A DNA stretch of 54,070 nt, filler included, from Circinaria calcarea (lineage: Eukaryota): assembly GCA_051942165.1 (NCBI GenBank). It is 4 parts of 4 records of this genome, joined end to end, with 100 filler letters (N's around TTAATTAATTAA, not from the genome) between each part and the next. Parts side by side here need not be neighbours in the genome. Positions count along the whole stretch, not along the records: positions 13,561 to 26,999 come from JAVECS010000501.1; 3 more parts are not named here. One strand, given 5' to 3'. A program made the position numbers and the translations under genes. The notes below the pieces were generated by a model. The model searched no databases and was not told where the DNA came from. It was given only the letters and a program-made list of their open reading frames with translations. Every line of letters starts with the position of its first letter. Position 1 is the stretch's first letter. Shown here piece by piece: positions 5,978-50,003 of this stretch.

Positions 5978-6678
5978 CGCGTATAAAGAGCTTGAAATGC
6001 GCAAACTCGGGCCGATCACTCGAAGCAGAAATAATGATGATAATGGTAGTAGGAAAGTAGCCTTACTAGCCGCACGCAGAGGCCCAAAGTCATGAGGCAG
6101 GTTTAGTTCTTCCAAGAATGAAAGCTCATCTGATCATGCGAATTCCGCAAAGAAGGGAATGGGGTAGAGAAGTAAGAGTGTGTAGAGAGTGTGTAGGGAT
6201 GATAAGAAATGGAAATGTGAGGGGTAGGCTGAATGAACTGACGATGCCAACTGTGCCTCACTCGATCTCGCGCAAGGTCGATCAATAATACAACACCAAG
6301 TCTACTTGGTGAGGGGGAAGTGGTGCTGCTCGGGGAGCACAACAGACTGCGGCCCTCTCATACGTGGAGGGACGACTGCAGCTGATTACCTATAAGCTTT
6401 GCAGCAGCAGCACACCGTAGGACATTCGGATTGCTCGACGATCAATTCATCCCAGACTATGATACAGATCTAACATGCACCACAGGGGAGAGGATTCGAT
6501 GCGCGAAAGAGGCTACTTCTTCTACTAGACTGGCAGAAGAGTGCTGCTTGATGGCATTCCCTAAGCAAATACATGTAAAAGCACTGTGGCTCGTGTGGTT
6601 GGCTGAAGGGGGGAAATGTTTCTGGCCGCGCTAGGGAGTATTTTAACGCCGAACCCTTGGGATTAGAGTTAATCCGCC

Positions 6679-13460: not shown

Positions 13461-13560
13461 NNNNNNNNNNNNNNNNNNNNNNNNNNNNNNNNNNNNNNNN
13501 NNNNTTAATTAATTAANNNNNNNNNNNNNNNNNNNNNNNNNNNNNNNNNNNNNNNNNNNN
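13461..13560. other. Artificial contig-joining spacer (N44-TTAATTAATTAA-N44)
   Basis: 100-bp spacer with all-frame stop linker; identical at three positions. Confidence 0.97.
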
Positions 13561-14878
13561 CACTCGGAAATCTGGGACAAAGGAAGGCCAGGTTCAAATG
13601 ATACGAGAAGCAAACGGAAGTGTCACTGCACATCAATGGTCACAAAGCACTCAGCAGTGGCTGAATGTTGGGACCGTGGTGGATGCTGTTGGAAGTAGTG
13701 GAAAGAAAAAGGACTATCTCGGCATCGATTATGACTATGTCTTTGACGTTGATATCGAAGAAGGCAAGCCACCTCTTAAATTACCATACAACCTCTCGCA
13801 AAACCCCTATGAAGCTGCAACAAAGTTTATCGAGGACAACGAGCTACCCATCGGCTATCTCGACCAAGTGGCAAATTTTATTACGACCAACACACAAGGT
13901 GCAACCATTGGACAGTCATCGAACCCTGCTCCTGCGGGAGCTGATCCGTGGGGTACAGAGTCCAGGTATAGGCCCGGCGAGACGTCCTCCGCACCTTCAG
14001 CCTCATCCGCACCAACCCCAAGACCTAAGATACTGCCCCAAACCCAATATCTATCTATCAACACTGCCAATCTCAAGACGATCCAGAAGAAGATTGAAGA
14101 ACTCAATGCACAGCTGATCAAGGATGGATCTAAAGATATCGCGTTGGATTCTGCAGAGATAGAGACGCTTCGAGAGCTTACAAAGCATCTTGAGCAGAGT
14201 CCATCTCTTGCATCAAAGCCTAGCTCTGCAGTTACAAAGGGACTGGAATTGATCATGGGTATAGTCACTTATTGGCCTCCTGCACAGCGACTACCGAGTA
14301 TTGATCTTCTTCGTCTATTGGCTGCCGCTACCCCTGCGACAGCGGAATTCAGAACATCAGGCGAGGGTAGTATTGTCGAAGCCCTTGAAAGTAGCGGTGT
14401 TTTCGAGGATAAAGAGAGGAGTAATAACATCATGTTGGCCGTCCGAGCCTTTGTCAACCTTTTCGAAACAGGAAAGGGTCGGGACTTGGTCGACACCCAA
14501 TACGACAAGATCCATAGACTCGTCCAGTCGGTGTCGGAGGGTACTACAAATCGCAACGTTGCAATCGCTGTGGCTACTCTGTACATCAACTACGCCGTCC
14601 TCCTTACATCGACATCTCATTCAGGACTGCCCTCATCCATGGACCGCGGCATAGAACTCATGAACAATTTAACAGGCATCATTTCTACTGCTACGGATTC
14701 AGAGGCCATTTACCGTGGTCTTGTCGCAGCAGGCACGCTGCTGGTTCTTGGAGAAGGGGTGCAGATGGCTGCAAAGGAGATTTATGATCTGCCGGGAGCA
14801 CTGCAGAAGGCGGAGAAGGGGATCAAGGAACCCAGGATCACGAGAGTGATTTCGGAAATTAGGGATCTGCTAAAGTAG
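13561..14878 (+). CDS. DOA1: Ubiquitin homeostasis protein Doa1/Ufd3 (PLAA), 5'-truncated at contig edge: PFU and PUL domains
   Basis: PFU motifs GTKEGQVQMIRE, DYDYVFDVDIEEGKPPLKLPYNLSQNPYEAATKF, YLDQVANFITTNT; PUL motifs WPPAQRLPSIDLLRL, NNIMLAVRAFVNLF, DSEAIYRGLVAAGTL. Confidence 0.93.
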
Positions 14879-15273
14879 ATGGGAAGGTGGAGGTCGCCAA
14901 GTTGGCATGCAAAGGTAGCTCCATGGCTCATTGATACCGGCTTGAAGAATATGCCTGACCAAGATATGCGTCTTTGTTTCTTAGACCATGGCATTAATGA
15001 TAGAAACACTGGCCCCTTCTTTCTCCAGTCATGACTCTCTTGTTGCATGGTAGATCTGGGTTGCTGTTGCCCTCAAATACACGATGACTTCCTTGTGGGC
15101 TTTGGGTCGGGATTTCAAACTACCCTAACTGAAGTTCCAGACTTTCTCCTCGAAAGTCGGGAGAGCAAAACTTGTAGATGATTAGGTCTCCAATTTCGTT
15201 AAGATGCCCGAGTGCATTCAAGCACATCTGGCATTATTACATCAAGGCGATACATGGCATTAACCCCGGGGAG

Positions 15274-15376
15274 GTCGCGCTTACAAGTAGTACTGCACGG
15301 GACCTTGGAGGTAAGGTGCAGGCGACTGTCTCGCTTAAAATTAGTACTGTACGCGACCTTTGAGGTAAGGTACAGC
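15274..15376. repeat. Two-copy 54-bp-period direct repeat
   Basis: GTCGCGCTTACAAGTAGTACTGCACGGGACCTTGGAGGTAAGGTGCAG (15274) vs GTCTCGCTTAAAATTAGTACTGTACGCGACCTTTGAGGTAAGGTACAG (15328), 41/48 identical. Confidence 0.8.
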
Positions 15377-15583
15377 GCAAGGCTTCGGCTTAGTCAACCC
15401 CGTCCCTTAAGCGAGAATTTCCTAGGTTAGGGTTTGAGCTATGGTTTATAGCTAGTGTCCCCACGATATTTTCGGTCCTTCTTGACAATTTTTTGAGCCA
15501 GAATTAATACTCTAAGTAACAAAGACACTGAAGCCCGTCTCCGCCTACTCTTTAAGAAATCAAACGTATCAGAGACAGTGAGG

Positions 15584-16846
15584 ATGTCTGACCAAAGTTC
15601 AAATCGGCCTCTGAACGGCCAGCAAGACATGTCCAGCCATCCGCTATTTGCGGCTCTTAACCAACGAGTTACAACGCTGGAGACCATAGTCCAAACTCAG
15701 CAGACCCTATTCCAGGCCCATCAGACCCTATTCCGGATTCAACAATCGACAATCTCCAACTTGACTCGGTCGGTCAACGAACTTCGTGCTACGAATCAAG
15801 CCCAACCGGGTGGCAGTGGGCTTGGGCGATCAAGATTAGAAAATCGAAATAGAGACAGATCAGATCCCCATCAGTCAAGGGGTAGAGAAGGCAGGAGCGT
15901 ACCACAGCAGCGACATGGCCACGGGAGGATGCCTTCACGCTCACGATCTCCTCCTATACATCACCCGCGTTCTCGCCGACAAACCTCTTCAATTGAAAGC
16001 GATGATAGCCTGATGGGTGCACACGCCCGTGGTTTTGGTCATCACGAAGATACGCAGAGGTTGTCTGCCCTTCCTTCACCAAGACCAAGACCGGCAGACG
16101 TGGATAGATCACTGTATGAAGGAAGCAGCAGATCGCGATCTGGACTCCAGCAATCTCAGTCCCCAGCTAGGAGGACGACTGAGATAATAGATTTGGAGCT
16201 TGAGGATATAAGCGACGATGAGAACAAGCAGCATTCAGCTGATAGCGAAGGGAATCCAGCGGATGATGGGCGCGCTCAGCTTCAGCAACCAGAAAACTCC
16301 GCTGGTGGCAGCAGGCGACCTCCAACTGGAAACCTTGACTTGGCCACGGGGAGTAACGACCCTCAAGCCGTGGAGCAGGATTCCCCACCACGAGAAACGC
16401 ATACGTCAGAGGTTGAAGAGCCCCTTGATGAAATCGATGGGATCTTGGCAAAGGTCATATTGCCACCGAATTTTACGGATGCAGAGACTTTGATTTTCCG
16501 AAATCTAATAGAAAAAGGTAAAAGAACAAAATATACCCAACCGGACTATATATTCGACCTCTATTCGGTGGATCCAAAGGTAACGTATAAAGGTAGTACT
16601 CGGGTGCGGTGTGTTTGCTGTGGCTTAGCAAGAGAAGGGGTATATTGGATTAATGATGATGGAGGCAAGATAGAGCATGCGTCGGAAGATCAAATGAAGA
16701 AACGCTGTGGGCATTGTTCTAGGTATAAACGGCCTTGCTTGACGGTGCGACTCGTGGAAGGAGTCGACCCGACTAATTCTGCCTCGACAAACGGCGAGGG
16801 TAAGAGATGGAAATTATTTAAAAAAACTAACGCAGATGCAGAGTAA
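15584..16846 (+). CDS. Orphan protein: N-terminal coiled coil, RS-rich disordered middle, C-terminal Cys cluster
   Basis: 420-codon intronless ORF; LNQRVTTLETIVQTQQ..LTRSVNELRA; RSRSPP; CVCC..CGHCSRYKRPC. Confidence 0.6.
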   Translation: MSDQSSNRPLNGQQDMSSHPLFAALNQRVTTLETIVQTQQTLFQAHQTLFRIQQSTISNLTRSVNELRATNQAQPGGSGLGRSRLENRNRDRSDPHQSRGREGRSVPQQRHGHGRMPSRSRSPPIHHPRSRRQTSSIESDDSLMGAHARGFGHHEDTQRLSALPSPRPRPADVDRSLYEGSSRSRSGLQQSQSPARRTTEIIDLELEDISDDENKQHSADSEGNPADDGRAQLQQPENSAGGSRRPPTGNLDLATGSNDPQAVEQDSPPRETHTSEVEEPLDEIDGILAKVILPPNFTDAETLIFRNLIEKGKRTKYTQPDYIFDLYSVDPKVTYKGSTRVRCVCCGLAREGVYWINDDGGKIEHASEDQMKKRCGHCSRYKRPCLTVRLVEGVDPTNSASTNGEGKRWKLFKKTNADAE

Positions 16847-16910
16847 CTCCACTGGTATAAAAGGTTTGAACAATGGAAGAGCGTGCAAGGTATTCGAATA
16901 CCAGGATAGC

Positions 16911-17088
16911 AAGAGCTGGTTTCATGGACTACGAAATGTAAAACAAGAGATGGGTACCCCGAGGGTTCTTAGCCTATGGCGTGCAGAAAGAGCTGGGTTT
17001 CATGGACTATAATATATTAAACAAGAGATGGGTGCCCCGAGGATTCTTAGCCTATGTGAATAGGCCATGGCATGCAGAAAGAGCTGGT
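16911..17088. repeat. Degenerate tandem repeat, ~77-91 bp unit, ~2.2 copies
   Basis: AAGAGCTGG(G)TTTCATGGACTA..AAACAAGAGATGGGT(A/G)CCCCGAGG(G/A)TTCTTAGCCTATG, unit starts 16911, 16988, 17079. Confidence 0.8.
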
Positions 17089-17249
17089 TGCACACGATTG
17101 CGAACGAGTTAGCTATGTTTAATCTGGAGCAAGGGCTAGAGAACGAGAAGCCATATACATAATAGATAGAAGTTAATATGTAATCAAAGGCCCCTTGCTT
17201 CTTAAACCCGCGACCGCTTTCACTGCATGGTGACTCTAGCTCTTCGTGG

Positions 17250-17336
17250 ATTCACCCATCATTCTTTCCCAAGATGAATCTCCATTATTCTTTCCCGAGA
17301 TAATTCACCCATTATTTTCCCCGAGATGAATCCCCA
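17250..17336. repeat. ~26-27 bp tandem repeat, ~3 copies
   Basis: CCAT(C/T)ATT(C/T)T(T/C)CCC(A/G)AGAT unit repeated. Confidence 0.7.
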
Positions 17337-17489
17337 ATTCATGCCTCGCAGTGAATTCCAAACCAGTCATCCCCAGAGATGTTAACCCAACCCAATCCTC
17401 CCCGATTTCAATTTCTTTCCCAATTATCTGCACCAACTTTCTCCAACACTCTCAAGTTTGAGCATCGTCTTGCATCTTCGTATATATAT

Positions 17490-17957
17490 ATGATGCCATC
17501 CACCTACATCCTCTTCCACCAATACGATAGAGCCACGTCTTACGTATACTTTCTGTGGTTGGGTAGCTTATAGGCCCATTCCCATCTTTGGCCAGCAATT
17601 AGTGGTGTACTTGTCTCTGGTCAATAGGGGCCACCACATATTCCAGCGTCAGATAACGCGAGAAGGCCAGCACCATCGGCGATCCTTCGAGCTCCGGCAG
17701 CAGCTATTAGGCGTACGCCTGCCGCACATGCGAATGCAGTTGAAGCTCAAGAGTTGCGCCAGACTGTTGCCCATATGGATCAGATGATAGCACATGGCCG
17801 AGCCGCTATTGCTGCTGCAGGGGCTCTGCTTCAACAAAGGAATATTAATATAAGCCCATCGTCTGGCCCGTCTCCCTCAGCCTCAAGGCCTCTTCTGATG
17901 ACTGAGCATCATTTGTTATATATGATACTGACTCCGGCCTCCGTTTGCTTCTCCTGA
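17490..17957 (+). pseudogene. Small orphan ORF interrupted by TAG stops
   Basis: Track ORFs 17379-17573 and 17754-17957 share one frame, broken only by two TAG codons; Ala/Pro-rich, coding-like composition. Confidence 0.3.
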
Positions 17958-18545
17958 TTTTTATATAGGATTCCATTCTTTTATGTATCTATTTTCGATT
18001 AGTTTATATAGTAGGCGTCTGTGAGAATCCAGACCGCTTGTCAGGCAAAAGGGCTGCTCCGGAGGGATGATGGCGGAGAGGTTCCCTGGTGTACTGGATA
18101 AAGATTTATAAAAAGAGGAAAAGAGTAAGTAACTAAGGAATAAGAGCTTGAAGCATCTAGTTTACTTTAACCAAGTCTTTTATTCTACTCTTTCATCATG
18201 TCCAATACAGGCCGCCCGTTCATTCCCAATTTCGATGAGGAGATGGATTGGGATGACCACAGCGATGATGAAGCAACGGCTCAGGCCTTGACACTTCATC
18301 AACCTGCACCACCTGCCGCCGCCGCCGCCACCGCTGGTCCTCGTGCAGCTCCTGTTGCTTCTGCAGTTCCTGCAGTTCCTCGTGCTGCTCCTGCTGCTCC
18401 TCGGGCAGCTCCTCCAGCAGCTCTTCCTGCTGCAGCTCTTCCCGCAGCTCCTCCTGCTGCCGCTGCCGCCGGTGCTGGTCCGGCTCCTGCTCCTGCCCCT
18501 GCCCAGAGACAAGGAGGAGATGGGTCTCGTCGTAGAGATAGGAAT

Positions 18546-18783
18546 GCTCGTGGTGGCGAGCAACCTGCTCGTGGAGGTGAGCGCCCTGCTCGTGGGGGAG
18601 AACGCCCTGCTCGTGGGGGTGAACGCCCTGCTCGTGGGGGTGAACGCCACGCTCGTGGAGGTGAACGCCATGCTCGTGGAGGTAGGGATGCTCGTGGAGG
18701 TGAGCGCCCTGTTCGTGGGGGTGAACGCCCTGCTCGGGGTAGCAGGGATGCTCGTGGCGGTGAGCGCCCTGCTCGTGGTGGTG
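18546..18783 (+). repeat. Coding minisatellite, 21-bp unit encoding ARGGERP (~12 units)
   Basis: GCTCGTGGNGGTGARCGCCCT iterations; 11 RGG plus 1 RGS. Confidence 0.9.
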
Positions 18784-19784
18784 CACCTCCACCTCCTCCT
18801 CAAGGTCGTCCTCGCCAAGCCCCTCCTCGCCAGGCTGCTCCTCCTCAGCCCCAGGAAGAGTTCAGGATCAAAGGTCTTGCTGACCCGGTTGCTCCTCCGG
18901 TGCTCTCCCCTCCGTCTGGTCCTGCGGCTCGAGCAATATGTTTACCTCGAGATAGCCCGGATGATTCAGTAGCAGGTAACGTAAGAGGTACCACCAGCAG
19001 CTCCGTTCGAGACTCAGATCCTATTTTACAACCAGGGCATGCACCCCAAGTACCCGTAGCTCCATAGGGCGTTAAGTCGTTCATCACTCGGTAACCGCGC
19101 GGATTACATTAATGTACCAGAGGAGAACGCCCGAGGGTTTCAAAAAGCGTGAAAAGAAGCTTAAAAATACTTAGATAAATGATTATGGCTACAGCGAGGT
19201 TCAGCAAAAGCTGAAGCTATAGGACCTTGAATTAAAGAAACGTCGCCTGCGTCTTTTGTTATATATGATATTGGCTCCGGCCTCCCGCTCATTCTTGCTT
19301 GATTAAGATTTTTATATAAGATTCCGTTTATGGGCGGAGCAGTGGGCGTTATGATGAACGTGAAGGCAGTTAAGATAATTAGACCGTTATTCTTCATATC
19401 AATCTAATCAATGATACTCGTCCCACCACTCTAATTCTGGGCGTCGATCGTCTCATCGATCTCCTTATTCACCTTCTCGATTACACCGATCGCAATACGA
19501 GAGGAGAAGGTTCTCCAGAGACCGTGAACGTTCACCTCCTCACCGCTCTCCTCGCCGCTCTCAAACCAGAAGATCGCCTGCTGACAGGTCATAGGGCTAC
19601 CGAGGAGAACCGAGAGACTTGGCTTATACCAGTGGGGGACAGGAGTAGTAAGGGCGCCCTCAGGGGTCGCCAGCGGGACAGGTCCCTTTTGCGTACGATG
19701 GTACGCCCCAGTCAGCGCCTTCTTCTGTAGTATATAACCACAACTACTATATAGCGCCTCTACCCCGGCCTATTGCCCCCGCTG

Positions 19785-19991
19785 AAGAAGGAAGTAGTAG
19801 TGTAGTTCAGTACGGGAAGCAGCTTTTAGCTCCGTCTGAAGAGCAAAGGCGTCTTGAAGAGGATGTTATAAGGATAGCCAAAGAAGGAAGTCGTGGTATG
19901 GTTCAGTACGGGAAGCAGCCTTCAGCTGTGTTTGAGAAGCAAAGACGTCTGAAGGAGGATTATATACGGATGGCTAAAGAAGGAAAAGAAG
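19785..19991 (+). repeat. 96-bp (32-codon) tandem duplication within the pseudogene
   Basis: AAGAAGGAAGT..GTTCAGTACGGGAAGCAGC at 19785 and 19881; third partial unit at 19977. Confidence 0.75.
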
Positions 19992-21639
19992 CTATACATG
20001 AGGATGGTTAAAGAAGGGGAAGAAGCTATTCGAAGATTTTAAAAGAATAAACTCAGGGTGGCTGCTCCAGCAGCATATGCAGAGAAAAAGGCTCACGAAA
20101 ACCAGATTGCGAAGCTTTAGCAAAAGGTGGATAGCGTGGATTCATGCCTGGATCTGAGTTGAATCCCAACGAAAATGAGATCGCAACGCTTAAGGGGCAA
20201 CTCGATGCCAGGTTGCAACATCACGTCCCGTAGTAGCAACCCTTAGCTTATTCGTCTGGCATGAGCATGCAGTCTGCAATCGCTCATCAGTCATGGCAAC
20301 AGGTGCCATTGTCATATGCGCCTTTTGGTTCTCAGCAGCAGTAACAGCAACAGCCATTACCTCAGCGATTGGGCTTCGGCACTTAGCCTTCGTCATCTCG
20401 TCCTTCTGCCCAAGCGTCCCTGTCTGTGTCGTAGCGGTTTCCGGCAGCTCGGCCATCTCGTATGAGCGCAGCGCCTCTACCAGCACATGGCAGACCCTAA
20501 CTCGCTTTAGGTCAAGGTTCCCAGCCTTTCGATCCTAACCATACGCTCAGCAGAGACGATCTACGAGGTCGTATCGATGCAATGAGCCATAAGCTCTGGC
20601 CAGACTACGACGAGATAGATAGGTTCTTCGGGATACAGGCATCCTTTAGCGGAGGCCATGGCGTTGGAGGGGATGCTGCATCGATCTATGCATCTCAAGA
20701 CATCGACCAGATCCGAAGTTGGGCGCTGGAAAGCCTGAAGAAATACTTCGACGAAACCATCTGCGAGATCGCCGATGAGGTCGATAAAGATTTTTATACG
20801 GATGATCAACTCGCTGCACTGCCCAGCGAGATGCAAGCCATATCGTCGAAAGTCGGATCTACCTTGGAAAGGTTCTTCAGCGGTATTGCTTGTATACGAA
20901 ACGTATATGAAACTGCTCTGCGCAATGGTCATTTCCCTCCTGGAGAGTTGTGTCGGAGGTTCCGGGAGAATGTCACTAGTCCCCATCCTGACAGAAGCTG
21001 GCTGGACTTTTCGACCAGCGCATTGAGAAGGTTACAGGCAACAGTGCCTTCTCCTTTCCGTTTCGTCCCTGCCACTGCTGCAAATACCGCAGCATCATCA
21101 TCATCTTCGCAGGCATTGATCCCCAGTGGATTACGTTGAGTTGCCAGTCAGATTGACCCAAACAAAATGCAAGAAGATAATGCTAGGGATCGACAACCAT
21201 CCGAGGAAGTAGATTGAGGCTTGGAAAGAAGGGAAGGATGAAATATAAGATGATATAGGGAGGATAGTGCCGGTTTCCCTTGGATAAGGAAATAGAAAGC
21301 ACAGTAGAATAACGTAATAATGAAATTATTTAGTAAGTAGTTCTCGTACCGATGATTTCTTACGTGATAGCAAAAAAATAATAAGAGTGACCACAATATA
21401 GAAGGTAGTCTCCAGGGGGAAATCTAGCTCCGCTGATCAATAAGGATAGTAGTTACAGCGGTGAACTTTCAGCCCTGCGAAGCATCAGGTCGCGTAATAT
21501 CACGCTAGGGCTTCGCATCTTGCAACGGCACAATTCTAAAAGCACAAATCTTTACCATTACATCAGAAAAGTACTGTTTCACCTCCGCAATCGCATGAAC
21601 AGAAGTCATAGCTTGATACTGCAACATAACAATATTACC

Positions 21640-23631
21640 ATGTCTCAAAACACATTCGAGAAGGTTTTTGAATCGGGGACGAAAGAAGAGAAGATGGCTA
21701 AGGTAGATGAAGAAGAGGAGGAAGAAGCTAGGCGGCAAAAGCTATTGAAAGAACAGGCTGCTAAGAAAGCAGCAGTTCAAGCTGATAAGGCCGCGGCGCT
21801 GAAGAAGCGTCAGGAGGAGATTGCTGCCTCCAAAGCTGGGGTGTTTGCACCACCTGCGCCCACCAGCCAACGTCCACTCCATCCGATGGTGGGTACAACG
21901 ACAGCGGTACCAATGCCAAGACCTGGGATGACGATGCAAGAGCAGTCCGATGTCCTCTATCGAAATGAGGCCGATCAGGAAGCTATGCAGGCGAGGCGAG
22001 GTGGTGGGACTTGGGGTGGACCTAGTCGCGGATATCGAAGCGCGGCACCCATTGCACCACTTTCAACAAGATCTCGTGCACCACCTAACGCACCAACCGG
22101 ACCAGCTGTCAGGGGTGGGATACCTGGTCAAGAAAGGGGGGCTCGGGAGGTAAGTCAGCCCTCGGCTGAAACGGTGAAGAGGCAGGAGGCACAGCTCCAG
22201 CACTGGAAAGTAGCCCAGAAAGAGAAGCAGAGGTTGCAGGGGACGACCGCTAAGGTGGCATCCCTGGAAAACAGGATTTTTGGGAAGGTGGAGAAGAAAG
22301 CTTCCACTCCTACACAAAGAGGTGGTAGCTTCCAGATCCGTGGCACATCTCGCCTTAGGGGTAACATTCCCCTTGGTCCTCGGTCAGCTTCTGTTCGACC
22401 AACGCAAGCGATGAGGCCCCCTCCAATTCCCTCACCAGCTCGCCCATCAGCTCCTCCTGTCTCCCAGAGTGGAGATGTGGCTATTGAGCTTGCCCGAATC
22501 AATCTCGAGCGAGAGAGACTTGTTTCGGAGAGAGAGCGTGAGCGTCTTGCTTTGGAGAGAGAGACTGAGCGTGAGCGTCTTGCTTTGGAGCTCAAGAAAA
22601 CGAACCATCAGATTGCGATGGATATGATGCGGCTTGGGGAAAACCGTGGCCGGTTGCAGGAGATGTCGGCACAACCCCGTCGGCGCCGTTCTCGGTCTGC
22701 CTCCCCACGTCGCCGTAGTCCCACCCACTACGACGGCTACCGTACTCCAAGGTCCCCAGCCGAACAAGCTCATGGGAGTCAAAGTCGATCGCCAACAAGG
22801 TCACGATACCCGGCGCCAGGACCCCCCACACCTGCCTTCGCCCCGGCATACACGCCAAGTGTTGCCAGCCAAAGGTCGCATTCGATAAGGAGTGGATCTT
22901 CCTGGGTATCCCAAGAAGAATTCTCTCGCAATTGGCTGCCAAGGCAAGGTATCCGTGCGGGGAATCAGGCGCTACATGACAGTCAAGCAGTCAGGGCTAG
23001 ACTGCGAGCACGAGAGAGGGAGATGGAGTTGATGAAGCAGAAGATTGCAGCTAAGGAGCTGGCTGGGAAGAGAAAGGCAGAGGCCGCCATAACTACTACA
23101 GCGAAGGCAGAGCATTTGTATAACCAAATCTCTACCACACCCCGTGCGACCGATGAGGATAGACCTGCGCTGGGCATACGAGACACAGCCCCTGTCATAA
23201 GACCCGAGAATGCGCCCGATCTACACACAATTCCAGAAGGTTTTGTGCTGTTCTGTCACGCAGAATCCGCCGGGGAATACATCAATGGCTTGGAAGAGAG
23301 CGCCCAGGGGTTTAAGGCTGCGTGGGAAGAAGCCTACAATTCCTATGTTGATAGTGACGCGGACACAACGGTTGTTCGTCTACTCGCCGCGAGAGTAGGA
23401 ATAGAGGATGGCATCCTCGCAACCATTCAGGACCTCCTGAACCGCGCTCGGGGTCTAATAGACCAGGCTGCAACAGTGGCTGAGGTGGATGACGCCGTCA
23501 ACTTCTTAAACGCAGAGGCACTGCGTCTTGGGATCGACGGGCGGCGTGTGTTCAGCAACATAGAGTTGCTGAACTATCTTCCAAGAGACAAGCTTGGTCC
23601 CCTTGTGGTAAGTGAGTTCACAAAGGATTAA
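21640..23631 (+). CDS. Orphan protein with coiled coils, RGG/RS-rich disordered region and helical C-terminal domain
   Basis: Intronless ORF of ~663 codons from ATG 21640; RRGGGTWGGPSRG, RRRRSRSASPRRRSP, ERERLALE duplicated; C-terminal AGEYINGLEESAQGFKAAWEEAY.. Confidence 0.75.
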   Translation: MSQNTFEKVFESGTKEEKMAKVDEEEEEEARRQKLLKEQAAKKAAVQADKAAALKKRQEEIAASKAGVFAPPAPTSQRPLHPMVGTTTAVPMPRPGMTMQEQSDVLYRNEADQEAMQARRGGGTWGGPSRGYRSAAPIAPLSTRSRAPPNAPTGPAVRGGIPGQERGAREVSQPSAETVKRQEAQLQHWKVAQKEKQRLQGTTAKVASLENRIFGKVEKKASTPTQRGGSFQIRGTSRLRGNIPLGPRSASVRPTQAMRPPPIPSPARPSAPPVSQSGDVAIELARINLERERLVSERERERLALERETERERLALELKKTNHQIAMDMMRLGENRGRLQEMSAQPRRRRSRSASPRRRSPTHYDGYRTPRSPAEQAHGSQSRSPTRSRYPAPGPPTPAFAPAYTPSVASQRSHSIRSGSSWVSQEEFSRNWLPRQGIRAGNQALHDSQAVRARLRAREREMELMKQKIAAKELAGKRKAEAAITTTAKAEHLYNQISTTPRATDEDRPALGIRDTAPVIRPENAPDLHTIPEGFVLFCHAESAGEYINGLEESAQGFKAAWEEAYNSYVDSDADTTVVRLLAARVGIEDGILATIQDLLNRARGLIDQAATVAEVDDAVNFLNAEALRLGIDGRRVFSNIELLNYLPRDKLGPLVVSEFTKD

Positions 23632-25021
23632 GAAAGAGATAAGTTGAAGTATTTGGGTTTAGAAAAAACAATGTAATAAGAGTTGGGTTAATTGGCATCT
23701 CTGATTCTGGAAAGAGACGGTTACTTAGTATATTGTTCTTGCTTTTAAAAAAGAGCTGGGATACAGGTTGGGTTCGCCATGGCTCGATGCTTAAGGTAAG
23801 TAGGAAAAGCATCCCCTGGCTATATCTAACGAATTAGGCCGAAGAACGTCTAAGGTAAAATAAAAATCCTTTTGAATAGATTTAAAATGAGTGGTAATAA
23901 ATCGTGTTCCTGGCTTTGCATGCTAAACGCAATTGTGAGACGTGACCGACCTATGTGTACTGCCTATTCATCCCGTAGATCCATCCCACAAATCCGCCTG
24001 AATGAAAATCGGAGCGCATACCCACGCTTTGCAGGAGTGACCACGAAGCAGAAGACTCCCCATTTGGCATACTATTTCAATAGCTTGCTTAATTAATGAA
24101 TCCCTTTAACTATCTCCACGATCATGGCTAGAATTAAATATCACGATACTATTCGATTCAAGCTGTTATGGCTTACCATAGCGCATAAACAAATCTAAGG
24201 TTCCGCGCGGCTCTCGGTACGGTGAGGATGATTGGATCCGGCAGGGATGATTGGATTGGACGCGCCTAAATGTAGGGGTCCAAAACGTGGAGCTACCCAG
24301 AAAGAGGTTCAGAGTTTGTTGAGTATTATTTTCTTGCTGAGTATTGCGTTAACCTATCCCCAATAACTAGACTTGTGTACGGATATTATCGATAGACTAC
24401 AGAGTATTTTTTGTTGTGGGTAGAGAATTCGTTGAACTTATTCATAGCTACGAATCCCATTTGCTAATCCGGTAACTTCCAGTCATTAAAGCTGGCCGTT
24501 GCAGTCGCATGATTCTGGCTGCCTGGTAGCATAGGTAGTAGCACTTTTAATATTATCTCTCCTCTCTCCATCTATAGAAAGAAGTACATGCGTTTATCAG
24601 TGATAGGTGCCTACAAATGCTATCCGGGGCTCCTTTGGAACACTATAACGACACAACCGGCAGCGTGTAAAGTAATTGGAAGTGAGTAAACAGTGAGAAG
24701 GGAAAGGAATAAGTAGGTGTTGCAGGAATACGTGACTCCCATCGCAGTGGTTGTCACAATTGCATTGGAAATAGTAACAGCAGAACCGATTTCATTTGCT
24801 AAGCCTGGATGGGGAGTACTTATCCTGTTGTGCCAGCCATTTCAGGGCCCTTCTCTTGAGTTGACCATATCCTTTCCTTGATTCAGTATTTTAAAGCCCA
24901 CCTCTTAGTCATACCCAAGCCCTTCTCTTATTAATTGTCCCCTTCCTCAACACGGTCCAACTCTTTTCTATACCCAAGGGTCCTCCTCTTATCAAATGCC
25001 TCCTTCTCGCACCTATCAGAG

Positions 25022-26999
25022 CTACCGGGCGGCAGGATTCATGGTCGCCGTCATCCACTCGGAGGTGTACCACGCTGGCTGTGCTCCGGGCTGCACAGTT
25101 TCTGTCCTCGTGTTCCAGTCCCAATCACCCTCTGCATTAGGAGGTTCGTAGTTGGGATCAAAGTCCTTGATGGCGCCCCGCAAATCCGCCTCGGTGACCA
25201 CCAGAACGCCGCTGATGATTGCTCTCGTTCCAATCTGAGTCATCTGCCGGTACACCAAATACTCGGGGAAATTGGGTTGCAGGTCTTGATTTCTCTTACG
25301 ATTCATATAGGCGTGATCATATACCAGACTGCGTTTGCTGAGCTGCACCTGATTGCCCGTACGTCTGTCTGTATAAGTATCCTCGAAGCTATGTCGAGCA
25401 ATCCTATAAGGAAGTCCGCAGATAATGGTCCGGCAGATATCATTGATCCTCGAGTCGCGCAGAGTGGATGGCGGTGGGTAGACTTGGGATGGCTGGAGGC
25501 GTCTGCGGAGGTTCTCCTTGTTTCTCGCCTCCTCGCTGTTCGGTCTCCCCGCGCGGAGGTCTTGGTTTTCATGCAACATAGCATGTATATATGCCATGAG
25601 ATCTCCGTATGTGCTGAGATATTGATCAATGGCATGATCAAACAACACACTCGCAGGTCGACGACGCATGAGGACGGATGCCAGGCACAACATCTCCTCT
25701 GCCAACCCTACCCTGTCTCCCTCAACCAGCATCCCCGCCAGCTCCAGGTCGCAGGGGCGCTCCAATGCTTCCTCACCGAAAGGAGTCACCCGCAACTTGA
25801 CATCGACCATCCCCATTATCCAAAGCTCCTCATAGCCATCGCAGATGAAATCGAAAGGTGGTGCATCAAGAAATGGGATATCCCGGAGAAACAGGTCTGG
25901 TCTAGCATTTCGCAGACCGAGAATAACGCGTGCCAGCCGACTTCTGGTGATGGGTACGGGATGATGGTCGGGCATCATTTCATAGGACAGCTCGGTATAC
26001 ATCCGCCAACATATCCCAGCCCTTGTCCTGCCGACCCTGCCCTTGCGTTGATCAGCTGATCCCTTGGAGACGGCGGTGAGCCGGAGCTCTTCGCATTTCG
26101 TGATGGGGTCGTAGACGTCGACTTTCTCCAGACCCGAATCAATCACGTGGACTACGTTTTCCACCGTCAAGCTCGTTTCGGCAATGTTGGTTGCCAGGAT
26201 GACTCTGGTATACGTCGGCGGTGTGCGCGTATGAGAGGTGAGGACAGCCTCTTTGTCCTGTTGGGTCATACCATCGTACAGCTGGTAAACCACGAGACGA
26301 AGCTGATCTGCCACTGTTCTGAGAGAACGGGTGAGCATGGAAATCTCTTCCTCGCCGGGAAGAAACACCAAGATATCCCCACCGAAATTACCCGTAACGA
26401 TGTGTTCTATCGTTTGCCCAATGGAACTTGGGTAATTCGAGGCTGCCTTCTTCAGGTACTTTTGCTGAATAACATGTGGAGTCCCACCGGCAACATGCAC
26501 AGCAGTCGAGCCTGGGAAATGGTTCAAAAACGAAGCTGCATTGATTGTCGCTGACATGATGATCAGCTTGAGATCGTTGTCGGGATCGTCAATGAGCTGT
26601 CGGAGAAGGGCCAGCAACACGTCTGTATCCAAGCTCCTTTCGTGTGCTTCATCGATGATGATGGTGCTGTACCTCTTCGCCAGGATGTTACGGTCTTTAC
26701 CGTGGTATGCCTCCATGGCCAAGAACCCATCCGTTACGAATTCGATGATTGTCTCCGACGAGGTCATCTTCGTACCTCCCACACGGTATCCGACTTGCTT
26801 GCCCAGCTCCATATCCATCTCAGCTGCCACTCGTCTGGCACTCTCTATACAGGCCACCATTCGATGTTTAACGACTGCGATGCCTCGAGTGGGACTTATC
26901 AGGTGGGGAAGGTCATCGTAAAGGACGAACTGGGGGATCTGGGTGGTCTTGCCACAACCAGTATCGCTCGTCACGACAATGACCTTGCTGGTCTGGTAT
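25022..26999 (-). CDS. Divergent Prp43-derived DEAH/RHA-family RNA helicase, 5'-truncated at contig edge, intronless
   Basis: TGCGKTTQIPQFVLYDDLPHL (Prp43 signature), TDG, IIIDEAHER, MSAT, DILVFLPGEEEI, ATNIAETSLT, SADQRKGRVGR, followed by WH/HA2/OB-like regions. Confidence 0.88.
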
Positions 27000-27099
27000 N
27001 NNNNNNNNNNNNNNNNNNNNNNNNNNNNNNNNNNNNNNNNNNNTTAATTAATTAANNNNNNNNNNNNNNNNNNNNNNNNNNNNNNNNNNNNNNNNNNNN
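27000..27099. other. Artificial contig-joining spacer
   Basis: N44-TTAATTAATTAA-N44. Confidence 0.97.
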
Positions 27100-28221: not shown

Positions 28222-30647
28222 TTACACTTGCCCCCGACGGACCTGCCCTTGCGATAGCATACTCTGAACTAGCGCTTCCAGATTCTTCAATCGCGTATCC
28301 TTCTCTTGTGCCTCCTTCTTCAGCCTCTTGACCTCAGCTTGCAGCTCTCCCATTTCATCATCGACACCTTCATCATCCTCGATGGCATGCCTCGTGCGCT
28401 TGCCTCGTGGAACCCTTGTGGATACCTCGGGGGCAACCTGTGGAATGACTGGAGCTCCTATTCCCGTAATGGTCGCAGCTTCGCGGTCTGGAGATCCTAC
28501 GCCCCTATGTACGCGTCTCAAGTGCTCCTGCAGATTTTCCTTCCTGGAAAACCCGGTCCCGGTACTTCGCTTACAATCCCGATGTGGACACATCTTGGGT
28601 GCCTTGGGTCCACCATGTTGCTTGTGCACTTCACGTTGATGTCGCAACAAGCCGCCAGAGTAAGTGAAGCCTTGGATCTTTTCGCAGCCGGATTCTTCAC
28701 AGACATAAGGACGCGTGTGCTTGTCCATGTGCTTCCTGTGAATGGAAGGATTAGTTAAGAGTGGCGAAGCAGGACAAAAGACGCGCCATTACTTACGTCC
28801 ATTCACATTTGCGGGAAAAGGTGAGGTTTTTGGCAGAGCACTCTCGGTGAGAGCAGCATATCTCACCTTGCGCATTTCGTGGAGGTTCTTGATTGCCTCT
28901 GCCATCTTGATTGGAATCAGGACTCCGCTCGGTAGTCGGAGATACGTTGTGTGAATTCTCGGTTCGTAGGTTGATGGGAACAGAGGGACATATAGATGGA
29001 GCACATTCTGAGCCGTCGCTATGCTGCGGGCTCGGATAATTGTCATGCATCAGAGGTCGAAGTCCGGAGTTTATGCCGGGATTGCCGGAGTAATGCCAAT
29101 ACAGGTTGTTCGGAGATGTATCTGTGATGGGAGTGGTGTAGTTTGCAGCATAGGAACTGGGCGAGCTGTTCGAGAACGGAACTTGCAGATTCGATGTCGT
29201 GACGTTGAGCTGGTTGAGATCAGACGGCCACTCATATCCGGTATCCCGAGCAGCATTGGCTGCGAAGGTGGTGCCTGCTTCTTGAGGCCATATGCTCGTC
29301 GAGCTCAAGAAAGAGGTCGCAGAGGAGGGGGTCGTCGGGCTTATATACGAATTACCAACCGATCTGCGCCGAGACCGACTTGCAAGCGTATCGCTATTAG
29401 GGATGCCTGTTTTTCAGGGTTAGCCTGGCACGTGAGTCATAGTTTCTTCACATGCCTGCGGCGCTAGAGGTATTAAGCATCGCGCTACTAAGCGAGCCAG
29501 TATCGTTGTTGACACGTGACCCCGCTGGCCCAAAGTTCCGGCCAGGCTGCGACCGCTGCATATTATTGGCATAGCTGCTAAGCCAGGTATTTTCGTCTGC
29601 ACCACTCGTCAGCATACTGGCGCAGTCAGGCAGATGAATATGAATATGAAGGTCGTACCCAAAATTTGCATGTTAGGCTGCGATGCTGGTGTTTGCTGCC
29701 ACTGCCTATTGCCTTCCCCAGCTTCTCCGATAGCCTCGTTGTGGGAAAGGAGGTTCCCATAGAACATCCAACACACGCCCCATAGAACTACGAGTGAGGA
29801 CTTAATATTCCAAGGCCAGGTCGTGCTGAGCGGACGACGACCACTTGGCCATTCGGAAAACCAGCTGTCGCAAAATTGCTTTTGCTGTTGCCAATGTTCA
29901 CGCCAGTGATGGATTTCATCCTCGAGAATTCCTAGGCTGTGCCAAATAATGGCCTGCAGAGCAGCCTGTTGGAGACATAGGAGCATGTGTTCGAGGTTGG
30001 GTACGAAATTTCCACGCTTGGTATTATCCACAGTGGAGCAGGCCTCCTGATGCGATGCAGCATCAAAAATCCATGCACCTTGGACGCTCCCAAGCAACAA
30101 CGTAGAAGCATCAACGACATGGCGAAGGTGCTTGATGGTGGCATTTTTAATGAGCCGTTGAGCGTCGAAGCGGAGGAATAACTTGTCCTTCGAAGCCACA
30201 GAACTAAGGGAAAAGACTGGTAGCGTAGCATTGCAGTCAAGTTCGTTCAGCACCCTACGGATAAGTCACGTCAGCAAACTCAGTCGAGCATATCCCACAG
30301 AAGAGGAGGTTATTACTTGAGATAGCTTGACGCAGACCTCTCTGCTGGAATGCTTGGAGGCAAACCTGTGACTCTCCCGACCTGTGTGTCATAAATGGAT
30401 TTAGGCTTCAAAGCCCTGGATTACCATCAGTCAAGTTCGTAGTTTCAAGTTGTCTCACTGACCTGCTGATGCTAGTGAGAGCATGGACTTCGAGGGACTG
30501 GCATAGGGCAGATGGTTGCGTGCTCGCTCGGTTTCTTTTGACTCGAGCCTTGAGCTGTTCCCTGACTCGCTGAACAAGCCTTGCCAGTCTAATGGCCGCG
30601 TAGAGAGAAGGACGCGTGAGCGTAGCCTGATCCTTCATAATATCCAT
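28222..30647 (-). CDS. C2H2 zinc-finger transcription factor with Trp-rich N-terminal region (about 6 exons, one GC-AG intron)
   Basis: Fingers CSHRECSAKNLTFSRKCEW/TKHMDKHTRPYVCEESGC..LLRHQREVH and CPHRDC..FSRKENLQEHLRRVH, C-terminal coiled coil; upstream exons splice in frame; start codon uncertain. Confidence 0.75.
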
Positions 30648-40536: not shown

Positions 40537-40636
40537 NNNNNNNNNNNNNNNNNNNNNNNNNNNNNNNNNNNNNNNNNNNNTTAATTAATTAANNNNNNNN
40601 NNNNNNNNNNNNNNNNNNNNNNNNNNNNNNNNNNNN
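40537..40636. other. Artificial contig-joining spacer
   Basis: N44-TTAATTAATTAA-N44. Confidence 0.97.
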
Positions 40637-49074: not shown

Positions 49075-50003
49075 TGCAGCCGAGACGTAGAGGCAAACAC
49101 GAGGTCTCGTTCAGAGCGGTACATGAGATACGCATGTTGCGCCGCCAGGGTAGCTTGGTAATCTAGATGCCCGTCAAATCTACATGCGACGGTCCAGCCG
49201 GCTCCCTTGTGATCGAACCATGTCATGGAAACACGAACGGGTGACATGGAGAGTGCAACCGCTTCCGGCACCTCCGTCTGCTGGTGTAGTCTTGTAGAAT
49301 AGGCAGATGATTGCTCTCCGTGCTGGAGCAAGCCTGATCAATCAACGGCCCTAAGGTATGTCGTCTTGATATGTTTGATGTGGTAAAGCATCCGTCGATT
49401 CCTTGCAGAATTATGGTATGGCTACCAAGGCCCCCCCCCCGAGCTCTGCCAATATATCCGTCCCCTTTCGGTTGCGGAGCTGATTGCCTGATTTGGCTGA
49501 AATGACGATAGATCAATTGGCGGTTAGACTTCGTCCTTAGTGTCCTTCTTGGTGTCTTCTTAGAGCCTTCTTCCGGGCCGGCCAAAACTCCGTATCCCGC
49601 TCTCCTTCGAACACCGGACACACCTCCAAAGACGACTCGCGCAATGCCACACCGCTTCTTCTCATTTTTTCCTTTCCTCCCGGTCGGGGAGTCGTTGTAC
49701 TACTACTTACTACCGCAGATTAATGGTAATGATATTAATGAAGCCATCTCCTTAGACTCTCCCTTCACCCCCTCAGAGAATTCCATTCTTATTCACTCAC
49801 TCTGCTGACGCCTACCTGACTTACGCCGCTGCATTACTGCCCGTTCCTTTACTCAACACCCTTCCTCGCAACCGGCGACGCCCGGATCGTGGTAGCGATG
49901 GGCGTCGAAGTCGCAGCGTTCCGGCAGCAATATCCCTAACATATAGCAAACGTCCCCTCTGCGCAGCTGTCTCTGAAGTCCTCCCAACCCACCTTGTTCC
50001 AAC

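Follow-up and report, generated by a model that had tools for sequence, protein, structure and literature searches.

The analysed window (54,070 nucleotides, filler included) consists of four contigs that were joined via three N44-TTAATTAATTAA-N44 linkers. The region described here lies on one whole contig of 13,439 bp (13561-26999) with these artificial linkers on both sides (N runs at 13461-13504/13517-13560 and 27000-27043/27056-27099). Since the proposed gene island spans most of this one contig, its right edge at 26999 is merely the contig end, and this position was rejected as an island boundary. Caution is required here: the boundary of the "island" arose from the joining of separate contigs. 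The following features were located.

13598-14878, plus strand: C-terminal half of DOA1/PLAA with PFU and PUL domains (Pfam PUL 2.9e-71, PFU 5.6e-42)
15584-16846, plus strand: ORF A, predicted, 420 aa
16436-16846, plus strand: 6-Cys domain of ORF A, CxCC-x28-CxxC-x6-C, six invariant Cys
16911-17358, no strand: intergenic tandem repeats, 78 bp x1.9 and 26/52 bp x3.2/2.2 (TRF)
18198-19067, plus strand: ORF B, predicted, 289 aa
18545-18783: 21-bp repeat x11.7 within ORF B (TRF)
18924-19161, plus strand: probable decayed copy of the linker and the start of the C-terminal domain of ORF D, with a stop, a frameshift and a second in-frame stop
19327-20469, plus strand: degenerate stretch collinear with the tail of the C. 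calcarea gene model Q9187_003665 (matches to P0123)
19415-19591, plus strand: short RS frame of 59 codons within the degenerate stretch
19785-19985: 96-bp tandem repeat within the degenerate stretch (TRF)
20582-21139, plus strand: ORF C, predicted, 185 aa (212 codons stop to stop from 20501)
21595-23631, plus strand: ORF D, predicted, 678 aa
25022-26998, minus strand: convergent DEAH helicase, 658 codons, N-terminus cut by the contig end

The DOA1 frame is open to the contig start, which cuts off the N-terminus of this protein. Downstream of DOA1, four ORFs (A, B, C and D) follow on the plus strand, none of which matched Pfam at E ≤ 0.01; three domain-sized pieces of the ORFs gave no match above threshold in Pfam at E ≤ 10. 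A preliminary description of this DNA had placed co-oriented genes without recognisable family behind DOA1, interleaved with local tandem repeats. Both observations hold, and the repeats lie at 16911-17056, 17246-17358 and 19785-19985 (TRF). The convergent Prp43-like helicase, with which the island was thought to end, is also present, but position 26999 is the end of the contig and not of an island.

The helicase frame runs off the contig shortly before motif I. In the PDB sequence search, Prp43 was the top match (1.2e-82, 281 bits), and Prp16-like and DHX15 sequences reached 254 and 246 bits, respectively. For P0005, a less diverged member of the same clade, the scores were 342-354 bits for Prp43, 314-315 for human DHX15, 311.5 for Prp16-like and 310 for C. 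elegans ddx-15. The alignment of P0005 takes in the N-terminal extension of Prp43, which is present in the clade members with intact N-termini. As in Prp43/DHX15, the sequences DEAH, SAT, TNIAETSLT and QRxGRxGR (here QRKGRVGR) as well as the RNA-contacting threonines of motifs Ib and V are kept, as judged from an alignment of 12 sequences, including 4 canonical Prp43 rows and 7 clade members. In contrast to Prp43/DHX15, the first Walker A residue is a serine and the P-loop reads GCGKT (motif I, GETGSGKT changed to SDTGCGKT (TGCGKTT), with GxGKT kept), motif Ia reads VKHRMVAC in place of TQPRRVAA, and the hook-turn SIRFE is replaced by RVGGT, so that RF has become GG. The HMMER alignment to 5d0u agrees on the motifs, and RF is missing in all clade rows that cover the hook-turn site (7/7). 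By the sequence of its NTPase motifs I, II, III, V and VI, the protein can be classed as a genuine DEAH-box protein.

Also unlike in Prp43/DHX15, the HA2 and OB domains of the helicase are too diverged for Pfam, whose HA2 and OB models gave no match, and a tryptophan-rich, clade-specific C-terminal tail is found in place of the basic tail of Prp43. The AF2 model of the helicase (pLDDT 78, pTM 0.75) nevertheless predicts the full RecA1-RecA2-WH-helical bundle-OB fold of a DEAH protein. It was superimposed on spliceosomal Prp43 (9l5r_Cc) over 657 columns (E 1.4e-45, TMq 0.77) and on structures of Prp43, Prp2, Prp22 and Prp16 over 632-705 columns (TMq 0.64-0.80). The earlier view of a Prp43-like and remodelled helicase is borne out by these data, with Prp43 as the best match on the one hand and the change of RF to GG, the altered motif Ia and the diverged C-terminal domains on the other.

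The database matches of the helicase fall into two groups. Seven relatives (38-85% identity) are without HA2 and OB Pfam domains; the second group (P0009-P0120; 34-40% identity) possesses PF07717, PF21010 and mostly PF04408, and its members named at the source are mostly Prp43. The named relatives of the helicase, Xylographa bjoerkii and Acarospora aff. strigata, are lichen fungi, and all belong to the Lecanoromycetes. The helicase clade is monophyletic (SH-aLRT 100) with a stem of 7.95 substitutions per site. In the free tree it is nested within the Prp43 of the Leotiomyceta (99); the log-likelihood rose by 3.26 units when the 19 canonical Prp43 rows of the Pezizomycotina were constrained to one group (p-AU 0.72). 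The trees covered the clade and Prp43 sequences, and derivation of the helicase from Prp43, which ranks first in the PDB searches, is putative. Due to this separate long-branch clade, its support and an identity to the canonical Prp43 rows of 32-33% in the alignment, assignment of the helicase as a Prp43 orthologue was rejected. It is best regarded as a putative neofunctionalised Prp43 paralogue. The clade, which includes Xylographa and Acarospora, is much older than A and D.

In Tauchert et al. 2017 (PMC5262380), the RF hook-turn is called a defining and universally conserved element of DEAH-box proteins, which is essential for pulling RNA through the enzyme. According to the same study, the R180G/F181G mutant of Chaetomium Prp43 (ctPrp43) shows an unwinding rate of 0.68 in comparison to 60.03 nM/min and fails in the disassembly of the intron-lariat spliceosome, but its intrinsic ATPase activity is retained and it binds U16 RNA. 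In Prp43, RNA phosphates are contacted by Thr195 of motif Ib and Thr381 of motif V. The helicase has GG at the same two aligned positions as this mutant. Because of these published Prp43 mutants, we infer that translocation is lost: by analogy, the helicase would bind RNA and hydrolyse ATP without pulling RNA through the tunnel. Its role would in that case be that of a clamp or switch on RNA/RNP under the control of ATP, and its partner surfaces would differ from those of Prp43. Unlike the mutant, the natural helicase has many further changes; the properties of the mutant are a prediction for the helicase, and compensating changes elsewhere in its tunnel are possible. No description of such a hook-turn-less Prp43 paralogue was found in the literature searched. 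As the clade keeps the ATPase machinery and RF is lost in every member examined, it may represent a natural experiment on the capacities of a DEAH protein without translocation.

ORF A is composed of a conserved N-terminal helical motif (residues ~1-70), a variable R/S-rich disordered linker (~70-285) and the C-terminal 6-Cys domain. Among 6341 candidates, a single non-self match was obtained, which is from C. calcarea. This orthologue (Q9187_003663) is 62% identical over residues 1-293, and its C-terminus is different. P0129 possesses the N-motif and the Cys domain as in ORF A and has no RS linker; the RS-rich linker is therefore dispensable in this family. A search of 1.84 billion representatives and of their clusters gave three true homologues of the 6-Cys domain: P0126 together with P0129 from its cluster, and P0127. 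The AF2 model of the domain reached a pLDDT of 64 with a best fold Z of 2.4, and the domain is presumably zinc-binding. In the Atlas feature search it was nearest to DUF3716-bearing clusters (0.82-0.89), which is below the 0.9 mark and a lead only. Identification as DUF3716 (PF12511) was rejected, because the domains of A, P0126 and P0127 miss this Pfam model at E ≤ 10, as they do every other Pfam model at this threshold. The domain defines a small family without a name or Pfam model. For both P0127 and P0002, an orthologue of the helicase, the ENA contig on record has a length of 9,711 bp. Co-occurrence of ORF homologues with divergent Prp43 copies had been suggested as a check, and in one relative the 6-Cys domain of A and a helicase orthologue are most likely encoded on the same contig. 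As this linkage recurs in a second genome, it could reflect function and not mere synteny.

In ORF D, charged helices are followed by an R-rich disordered centre (3 RGG, RS tract) and a variable helical C-terminal domain. Two non-self matches, both from C. calcarea, were detected among 8000 scored candidates, and one of them (Q9187_003718) is 69% identical to ORF D. Calculated per 50-aa block, the identity was 67-94% for residues 51-500, 41% for residues 1-50 and 34-50% for residues 501-678. ORF B comprises an Ala/Pro-rich part, an ARGGERP array and a tail homologous to residues ~495-553 of D, which aligns to D 528-553 and P0122 570-619. In its region five of the six frames are open, GC3 is 0.31 and the RSCU correlation is -0.08. 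By tblastn, D 528-553 was found at 19005-19082 (frame 0) and, collinear with it, D 561-580 at 19102-19161 (frame 1, 55%), with a summed E of 2e-4 in the 2.6-kb target; P0122 570-619 was found at 18924-19064 (E 0.001). On the basis of these short collinear matches, ORF B and the adjoining downstream stretch probably represent the decayed remnant of a partial tandem duplicate of D (D'). The cassette had been presumed to be duplicated or mobile; duplication is supported for the D family, with one probable decayed copy, and mobility is not supported. In the degenerate stretch that follows, P0123 matched at 19327-19368, 19374-19469 (75%) and 20203-20283; frame 2 contains 11 in-frame TAA/TAG stops, and the other frames show a similar stop density.

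No relative of ORF C was found in Pfam, PDB or Atlas. By our own estimate, chance would give ~0.05 open frames of 212 codons, the length of ORF C, in a contig this long. Homologues of ORFs A and D were restricted to Circinaria calcarea and a few other contigs; C. calcarea was the only named organism matched, in agreement with the proposed lineage restriction. Neither Xylographa nor Acarospora yielded a homologue of A or D in the searches run. The orthologue of A and a D-family gene, the tail of which is collinear with 19327-20283 of the window, are located on one 11,853-bp contig of C. calcarea, as ordinary synteny gives. A and D evolve through module swapping, and they show how modules are assembled and reassembled into young disordered proteins in a class of fungi that has been little sampled.

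SR proteins are defined by one or more RRMs together with an RS/SR-rich RS domain that extends over tens of residues, and RGG/RG-motif proteins contain clustered RGG repeats with a spacing of few residues in a disordered region. Charged low-complexity tracts are commonly borne by fungal disordered proteins of many functions. The tract RSRSPP is located in ORF A and RRRRSRSASPRRRSP in ORF D, whereas RERSPPHRSPRRS, one of the tracts ascribed to the large genes, belongs to the 59-codon frame (19415-19591) outside any large ORF. RS and SR dipeptides occur 19 times in ORF A (9.0 ± 2.8 in composition-matched shuffles; 19 reached in 1/2000) and 19 times in ORF D (11.3 ± 3.1; 28/2000), and no such excess exists in ORFs B and C. 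The enrichment in A and D is modest. RS tracts had been reported for each large gene, and an enrichment is seen in A and D; the two genes with RGG boxes were correctly recognised (B with 11, D with 3). A and D share with RNA-binding proteins of the SR and RGG/RG types R-rich disordered regions and RS dipeptides above composition, and RGG triplets occur in B and D. Unlike in RGG/RG-motif proteins, the 3 RGG of D are dispersed, and the sole dense array (11 RGG at 7-residue spacing) is encoded by the 21-bp DNA repeat in ORF B, whose coding status is doubtful. The ORFs were rejected as SR proteins, for they are without an RRM, and alternating RS runs extend over at most 5 residues in A and 4 in D. 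As no ORF of the contig has an RRM, G-patch, KH or another Pfam domain related to RNA, and with RS tracts far below an RS domain and a dispensable linker, the notion of an RNA-processing module is not supported.

As noted before, no transposase or tyrosine recombinase is visible: all 58 further stop-to-stop ORFs are without a Pfam match (58/58), and neither these nor the named ORFs matched a transposase, integrase, reverse transcriptase, recombinase or DUF3435. The 13.4-kb contig contains no DUF3435 captain and no long direct, inverted or terminal repeats, nor was a copy seen on the three remaining contigs. For A, C, D and the helicase, both GC content and codon usage lie within the range of housekeeping genes on those contigs. 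DNA mutated by RIP is characterised by TpA/ApT >0.89, (CpA+TpG)/(ApC+GpT) <1.03 and a lowered GC content. The composite RIP index was positive in 1 of 26 one-kb windows (19061-20060, +0.18; indices 1.12 and 0.94, GC 0.47), which overlaps the degenerate stretch; the contig-wide indices are 0.75 and 1.30. Differences between tandem copies are ordinary two-way transitions (5/7 and 12/17). RIP of the contig was rejected on these grounds, and the C>T-type decay noted before is not general.

The stretch is best described as a chromosomal, lineage-restricted, fast-evolving gene cluster beside a putative Prp43 paralogue. It is probably an ordinary part of a chromosome of a lichen-forming ascomycete close to Circinaria (Megasporaceae), without any sign of mobility, in which young, fast-evolving genes for R-rich disordered proteins neighbour an older Prp43-derived helicase paralogue. 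In this cluster, A combines a helical motif at the N-terminus and a presumably zinc-binding 6-Cys domain with an R/S-rich linker that is replaceable, and D has charged helices and an R-rich centre ahead of a helical C-terminal domain that changes fast; B is probably what is left of a partial D copy. These orphan genes evolve via duplication, decay and module swapping, and the helicase would be an older paralogue derived from the spliceosome/ribosome helicase Prp43. A stricter reading, in which B, C and the short RS frame are chance or decayed frames and only A, D and the helicase are real, appears rather unlikely as a whole. It agrees with the open frames, the GC3 and the atypical codon usage of B, the end of which meets a stop and a frameshift relative to D, with the shortness of the RS frame (59 codons), with a stop density at 19.4-20.5 kb that is alike in three frames, and with the lack of a detectable relative of C. 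However, a frame as long as C is hardly expected by chance, an annotated C. calcarea gene model spans the equivalent of 18.9-20.3 kb, though apparently frameshifted, and this reading overlaps the chromosomal explanation without replacing it.

It is unlikely that the helicase works with the R-rich, RGG and 6-Cys proteins in a lineage-specific RNP module, in which they serve, for example, as cofactors, adaptors or substrates replacing G-patch partners. The joint recurrence of A's Cys domain and the helicase (P0127, P0002; 9,711 bp) and the RS enrichment of A and D fit such a module, as do the better conservation of D's disordered centre with RGG and RS (67-94% identical to C. calcarea) compared to the folded C-terminus (34-50%) and the strong divergence of the C-terminal helicase domains, the site of partner binding in Prp43. 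But RNA-related Pfam domains such as G-patch, RRM or KH are absent from every ORF, the RS linker is missing from the A orthologue P0129, charged tracts of low complexity are widespread among disordered fungal proteins of many functions, and the helicase clade extends to Xylographa and Acarospora, without A or D homologues from either genus. Moreover, the linkage recurs only in close relatives (81-85% helicase identity), as plain synteny predicts. A physical or functional link between helicase and orphan genes would be hypothetical, and a working RNA-processing unit is not supported. Assembly breaks are frequent at repeated DNA, and both this contig and that of the relative appear to break in the 5' region of the helicase, P0002 beginning at the equivalent of motif I. 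This would suit cargo of a large mobile element (Starship-like or class II transposon) with ends and captain or transposase beyond the 13-kb contig, as would lineage-restricted, duplicated genes of unknown function with a decayed copy and local repeats, which such elements also carry. Furthermore, A's Cys domain is weakly feature-similar to DUF3716 clusters (the Atlas lead), and REP9, a transposon of Zymoseptoria tritici, carries DUF3716 proteins (PMC8232023). Unlike Starship and REP9, the contig possesses no captain, transposase, integrase, reverse transcriptase, terminal or long repeats, second copy or DUF3716 Pfam match, even at E ≤ 10; GC, RIP indices and codon usage resemble those of the housekeeping contigs, and the order of the A and D-family genes is kept in C. 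calcarea. With this collinearity and no compositional break, the mobile cassette proposed before is not supported within the 13.4-kb contig, and we regard such cargo as very improbable.

Returning to the chromosomal cluster with its putative clamp or switch, a bolder extension is conceivable, although quite improbable: the translocation-dead Prp43 paralogue of the lichen-forming Lecanoromycetes might in Megasporaceae work with the genetically linked, rapidly diversifying R-rich proteins that share the 6-Cys domain, as a lineage-specific module for RNA surveillance or defence. If so, an arms race would have left its traces in the long branch, in the swapping of modules and in C-terminal domains that change fast.

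Three identical linkers (N44-TTAATTAATTAA-N44) lie within the 54,070-base window, which is therefore made up of four separate contigs placed end to end. The joins are artificial, and a feature that ends at a linker, or an adjacency across one, is an artefact. The region from 15200 to 26999 lies wholly on the second piece (13561-26999; 13,439 bases). The protein database gives the contig carrying its proteins this very length. The preliminary description let this putative island end in a convergent Prp43-like helicase. The helicase is indeed present, but the right-hand edge is merely the end of a short contig, which truncates the helicase gene just a few codons before motif I. The following features are referred to below:

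13461-13560, 27000-27099 and 40537-40636: artificial linkers (N44, TTAATTAATTAA, N44)
end at 14878, + strand: C-terminal half of DOA1 (PFU and PUL)
15584-16846, + strand: ORF A, 420 aa, without Pfam family
16436-16846, + strand: C-terminal domain of ORF A with six invariant cysteines (CxCC-x28-CxxC-x6-C)
18198-19067, + strand: ORF B, 289 aa, without Pfam family
20582-21139, + strand: ORF C, 185 aa, without Pfam family
21595-23631, + strand: ORF D, 678 aa, without Pfam family
25022-26998, - strand: convergent DEAH helicase, open frame of 658 codons

The most interesting element is the helicase, which, judged from its sequence, represents a Prp43-like clade that kept the ATPase motifs and lost the hook-turn. 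In the alignment, it retains DEAH, SAT, TNIAETSLT, QRxGRxGR and GKT, and also the threonines of motifs Ib and V, which contact RNA phosphates in Chaetomium Prp43 (ctPrp43) according to passages of PMC5262380. Motif I reads SDTGCGKT (GETGSGKT in Prp43) and motif Ia VKHRMVAC (TQPRRVAA in Prp43). The most striking change concerns the hook-turn, where RVGGT is found instead of SIRFE, replacing RF by GG. RF is absent from all seven rows of the clade that cover this site (GG in three, then GE, GQ, GS and PQ).

In ctPrp43, the exchange R180G/F181G almost abolished unwinding (0.68 vs 60.03 nM/min), and disassembly of the intron-lariat spliceosome was lost. Intrinsic ATPase activity, binding of U16 RNA and stimulation by G-patch proteins were all retained, and RNA gave no further stimulation, as described in the passages on this mutant (PMC5262380). 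The natural helicase and this characterised separation-of-function mutant carry the identical hook-turn substitution (GG). The helicase is predicted to bind RNA under the control of ATP without Prp43-type translocation.

The C-terminal half of the helicase has diverged so far that the Pfam models for HA2 and OB do not match it. A structure modelled with AF2 (pLDDT 78, pTM 0.75) aligned end to end with structures of Prp43, Prp2, Prp22 and Prp16 (top match 9l5r_Cc, E 1.4e-45, 657 columns, TMq 0.77), and according to this model the C-terminal half retains its fold with altered surfaces. Prp43 possesses a basic C-terminal tail, whereas a clade-specific W-rich tail (GDWDW...AWYTSEWM; 25022-25150) occurs instead in the helicase and its relative P0002 and, in a looser form, in P0005. 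That the frame stays open over 658 codons and the catalytic motifs persist at 52-85% identity speaks for a functional gene in this genome.

A search of 5.8 billion proteins with the helicase yielded two groups of matches. The first comprises seven relatives in which the two RecA domains are the sole Pfam matches (P0002, 85% identity; P0003, 81%; P0004, 52%; P0005, 41%; P0006, 45%; P0007 from Xylographa bjoerkii, 38%; P0008, 42%). The second (P0009-P0120; 34-40% identity across about two thirds of the query) possesses C-terminal Pfam domains of the Prp43 type (PF07717, PF21010 and, in most cases, PF04408), and members named in their source are mostly called 'Prp43'. In P0007 (MMC18_004042), DDAQ replaces DEAH and the SAT stretch (motif III) is missing; this protein is probably catalytically dead or mis-modelled. 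The named members of the helicase clade so far belong to Lecanoromycetes only, and the P0006 cluster includes a protein of Acarospora aff. strigata. Since Xylographa and Acarospora are members of different subclasses of this class, the clade is far older than the genus of the window. A metagenome scan with the helicase gave 185 pattern matches, none of which was confirmed as a relative by tblastn.

Among solved structures, the sequence search ranked Prp43 of Chaetomium and yeast at the top (281 bits, residues 1-444 aligned), followed by Prp16-like proteins (254), DHX15 (246), and Prp22/DHX8 and Prp2 (about 228-235). The less diverged P0005 likewise scored highest with Prp43 (342-354 bits), followed by human DHX15 (314-315), Prp16-like (311.5), C. 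elegans ddx-15 (310) and Prp22 (304), and its alignment to yeast Prp43 included the N-terminal extension of the latter, as is also seen in the clade alignment. This rank order and the extension suggest that the clade derived from Prp43. In NCBIfam, the helicase met only bacterial HrpA and HrpB, far under the cut-offs, and A and D remained unmatched. In a tree of 33 rows, taken from the clade and from Prp43, the clade was supported by an SH-aLRT of 100, and its stem measured 7.95 substitutions per site. Its nesting within Prp43 of Leotiomyceta in the free tree was withdrawn after the AU test. A tree in which the 19 canonical Pezizomycotina Prp43 rows were kept together was 3.26 log-likelihood units better (p-AU 0.72), and the free tree thus does not fix the date of the Prp43 duplication. 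In the literature searched (listings and selected passages), neither a study of a Prp43 paralogue from fungi or lichens nor a description of one keeping the ATPase without the hook-turn was found; the passages of PMC11412873 mention Prp43 in general background alone.

Between DOA1 and the helicase, the layout was described correctly: A to D are co-oriented on the + strand and match no Pfam family, even at relaxed thresholds, and the local tandem repeats are present at the positions proposed. RS tracts had been ascribed to each large gene. The peptides exist, RSRSPP in A and RRRRSRSASPRRRSP in D, but RERSPPHRSPRRS sits in a frame of just 59 codons. A contains 19 RS+SR dipeptides (9.0 ± 2.8 in composition-matched shuffles; 19 reached in 1 of 2000), and D also 19 (11.3 ± 3.1; 28 of 2000). 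No enrichment over shuffles was seen in B, C, the helicase or DOA1. The longest alternating RS run has 5 residues. RGG boxes occur in two ORFs as proposed, with 3 in D and 11 in B; those of B all fall within an ARGGERP array, which a 21-bp DNA repeat encodes. Both features, RS and RGG, are genuine but modest.

A mobile cassette, possibly serving as an RNA-processing module, had been proposed for this region. The absence of a visible transposase or recombinase was borne out: none of the 58 other stop-to-stop ORFs (≥ 60 codons, both strands) matched any Pfam family, and neither they nor the named ORFs gave a transposase, integrase, reverse transcriptase or DUF3435. The GC content of A, C, D and the helicase lies inside the range of the housekeeping ORFs, and so do their RSCU correlations (0.16-0.50 vs 0.05-0.63). 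B alone deviates (GC3 0.31, RSCU correlation -0.08). No copies of the island ORFs or the island DNA were found on the other three contigs. C>T decay across the island is not seen either, as the composite RIP index exceeded 0 in only 1 of 26 one-kb windows (19061-20060, +0.18) and the tandem copies differ by two-way transitions and some transversions. Gene layout, repeats and helicase of the preliminary description stand, but not the island end and the general decay; of its interpretation, 'Prp43-derived, remodelled, lineage-specific, duplicated' is supported in part, but mobility and a role as an RNA-processing module are unsupported.

Of 8000 candidates scored for ORF D, two matched apart from D itself, namely Q9187_003718 (69% over 92%) and Q9187_003665, a fragment. 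They come from a metagenome-assembled genome of Circinaria calcarea. Towards Q9187_003718, the disordered centre with the RGG and RS tracts (residues 51-500) is 67-94% identical per 50-residue block, as against 41% for the N-terminal 50 residues and 34-50% for the helical C-terminal domain; by this pattern, D is mosaic. A metagenome scan with the D alignment gave 229 pattern matches and no relative confirmed by tblastn, and PDB sequence searches with D or the A-family profile returned coiled-coil noise or nothing. One part of Q9187_003665 resembles the D of the window and another its own paralogue; this switch may reflect gene conversion or a mixture of haplotypes in that assembly. The gene model of Q9187_003665 looks chimeric, with a D-like centre (22459-23157), a frameshifted RS region and a tail whose DNA looks non-coding in the window (19327-20283). 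This tail is collinear with that stretch of the window, and Q9187_003665 shares one contig of 11,853 bp with Q9187_003663, a relative of A. Gene order from A onward is thus conserved in that C. calcarea genome.

The tail of B and the next 100 bases are collinear with D residues 528-553 and 561-580 (summed E 2e-4), but the stop of B, a frameshift and one more in-frame stop interrupt the match. In addition, 18924-19064 matches residues 570-619 of Q9187_003718 (E 0.001). From this short evidence, B and the DNA downstream are probably what is left of a tandem copy of part of D, and this decayed duplicate would explain the single RIP-like window and the earlier impression of decay. For C, no relatives were detected by Atlas, Pfam or PDB sequence search. 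All 11 in-frame stops in 19413-21139 are TAA or TAG, one inside QQQ*QQQ. That this stretch is a single long pseudogene, with nonsense mutations of the C-to-T type, was considered but not adopted, as stops are about as dense in the two remaining frames (about 14-16).

ORF A had a single non-self match among 6341 candidates, Q9187_003663 of C. calcarea, which matches A over residues 1-293 (62%, gaps included) and has an unrelated, acidic C-terminus. P0129 has the N-terminal motif and the C-terminal domain of A, but its linker is short and acidic instead of RS-rich, and in P0127 (849 aa) a long coiled coil and a disordered region are joined to the A-type C-terminal domain. Judged from these arrangements, A is modular. 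True relatives of its Cys domain were only P0126, P0129 from the cluster of P0126, and P0127 (representative library of 1.84 billion proteins, plus clusters). P0128 (3030 aa, repetitive; 8.9e-07) was discarded as spurious, its match comprising only query residues 11-47 across 8 repeats. The domain matched nothing in Pfam even at E ≤ 10, its model was of low confidence (pLDDT 64), and the top fold match (Z 2.4) was uninformative. By features, Atlas gave a weak pointer to clusters of DUF3716 and DUF8257 (0.87-0.89, under the 0.9 mark of the tool). Proteins with DUF3716 are carried by the REP9 transposon of Zymoseptoria, according to passages of PMC8232023; the resemblance, unconfirmed by Pfam, may serve as a lead.

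ENA records place P0127, with the Cys domain, and P0002, the 85% helicase orthologue, each on a contig of 9,711 bp. Since equal sizes by chance are very unlikely, both most likely share one contig. This is the one result favouring the proposed co-occurrence of island genes and helicase, but in a close relative conserved synteny predicts the same. P0127 has no detectable relatedness to D. Protein searches with A, D and the Cys domain found no homologues of A or D in Xylographa and Acarospora, the distant named hosts of the helicase clade. This absence is weak evidence, because fast-evolving disordered proteins could evade detection.

On the remaining three pieces, the genes are ordinary for a fungus (RdRP, a Cys/Met-metabolism PLP enzyme, an AMP-binding enzyme, purine-cytosine permease, Urb2, Iml1/DEPDC5 and an FNIP-like protein). 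The fungal RNA-dependent RNA polymerase (2962-6133, - strand; RdRP 2.5e-116 and 1.1e-53, plus a fungal RdRP PH-like domain), on a contig other than that of the helicase, is split between two open frames that overlap, suggestive of an intron or a frameshift. On the third contig, a 168-aa ORF (28222-28728, - strand) showed weak C2H2 zinc-finger and Med9-like matches, both under the Pfam cut-offs. On the fourth, Iml1/DEPDC5 (44296-49074, +) adjoins a FNIP-N-domain protein (49977-53576, +); both are regulators of TORC1 nutrient signalling.
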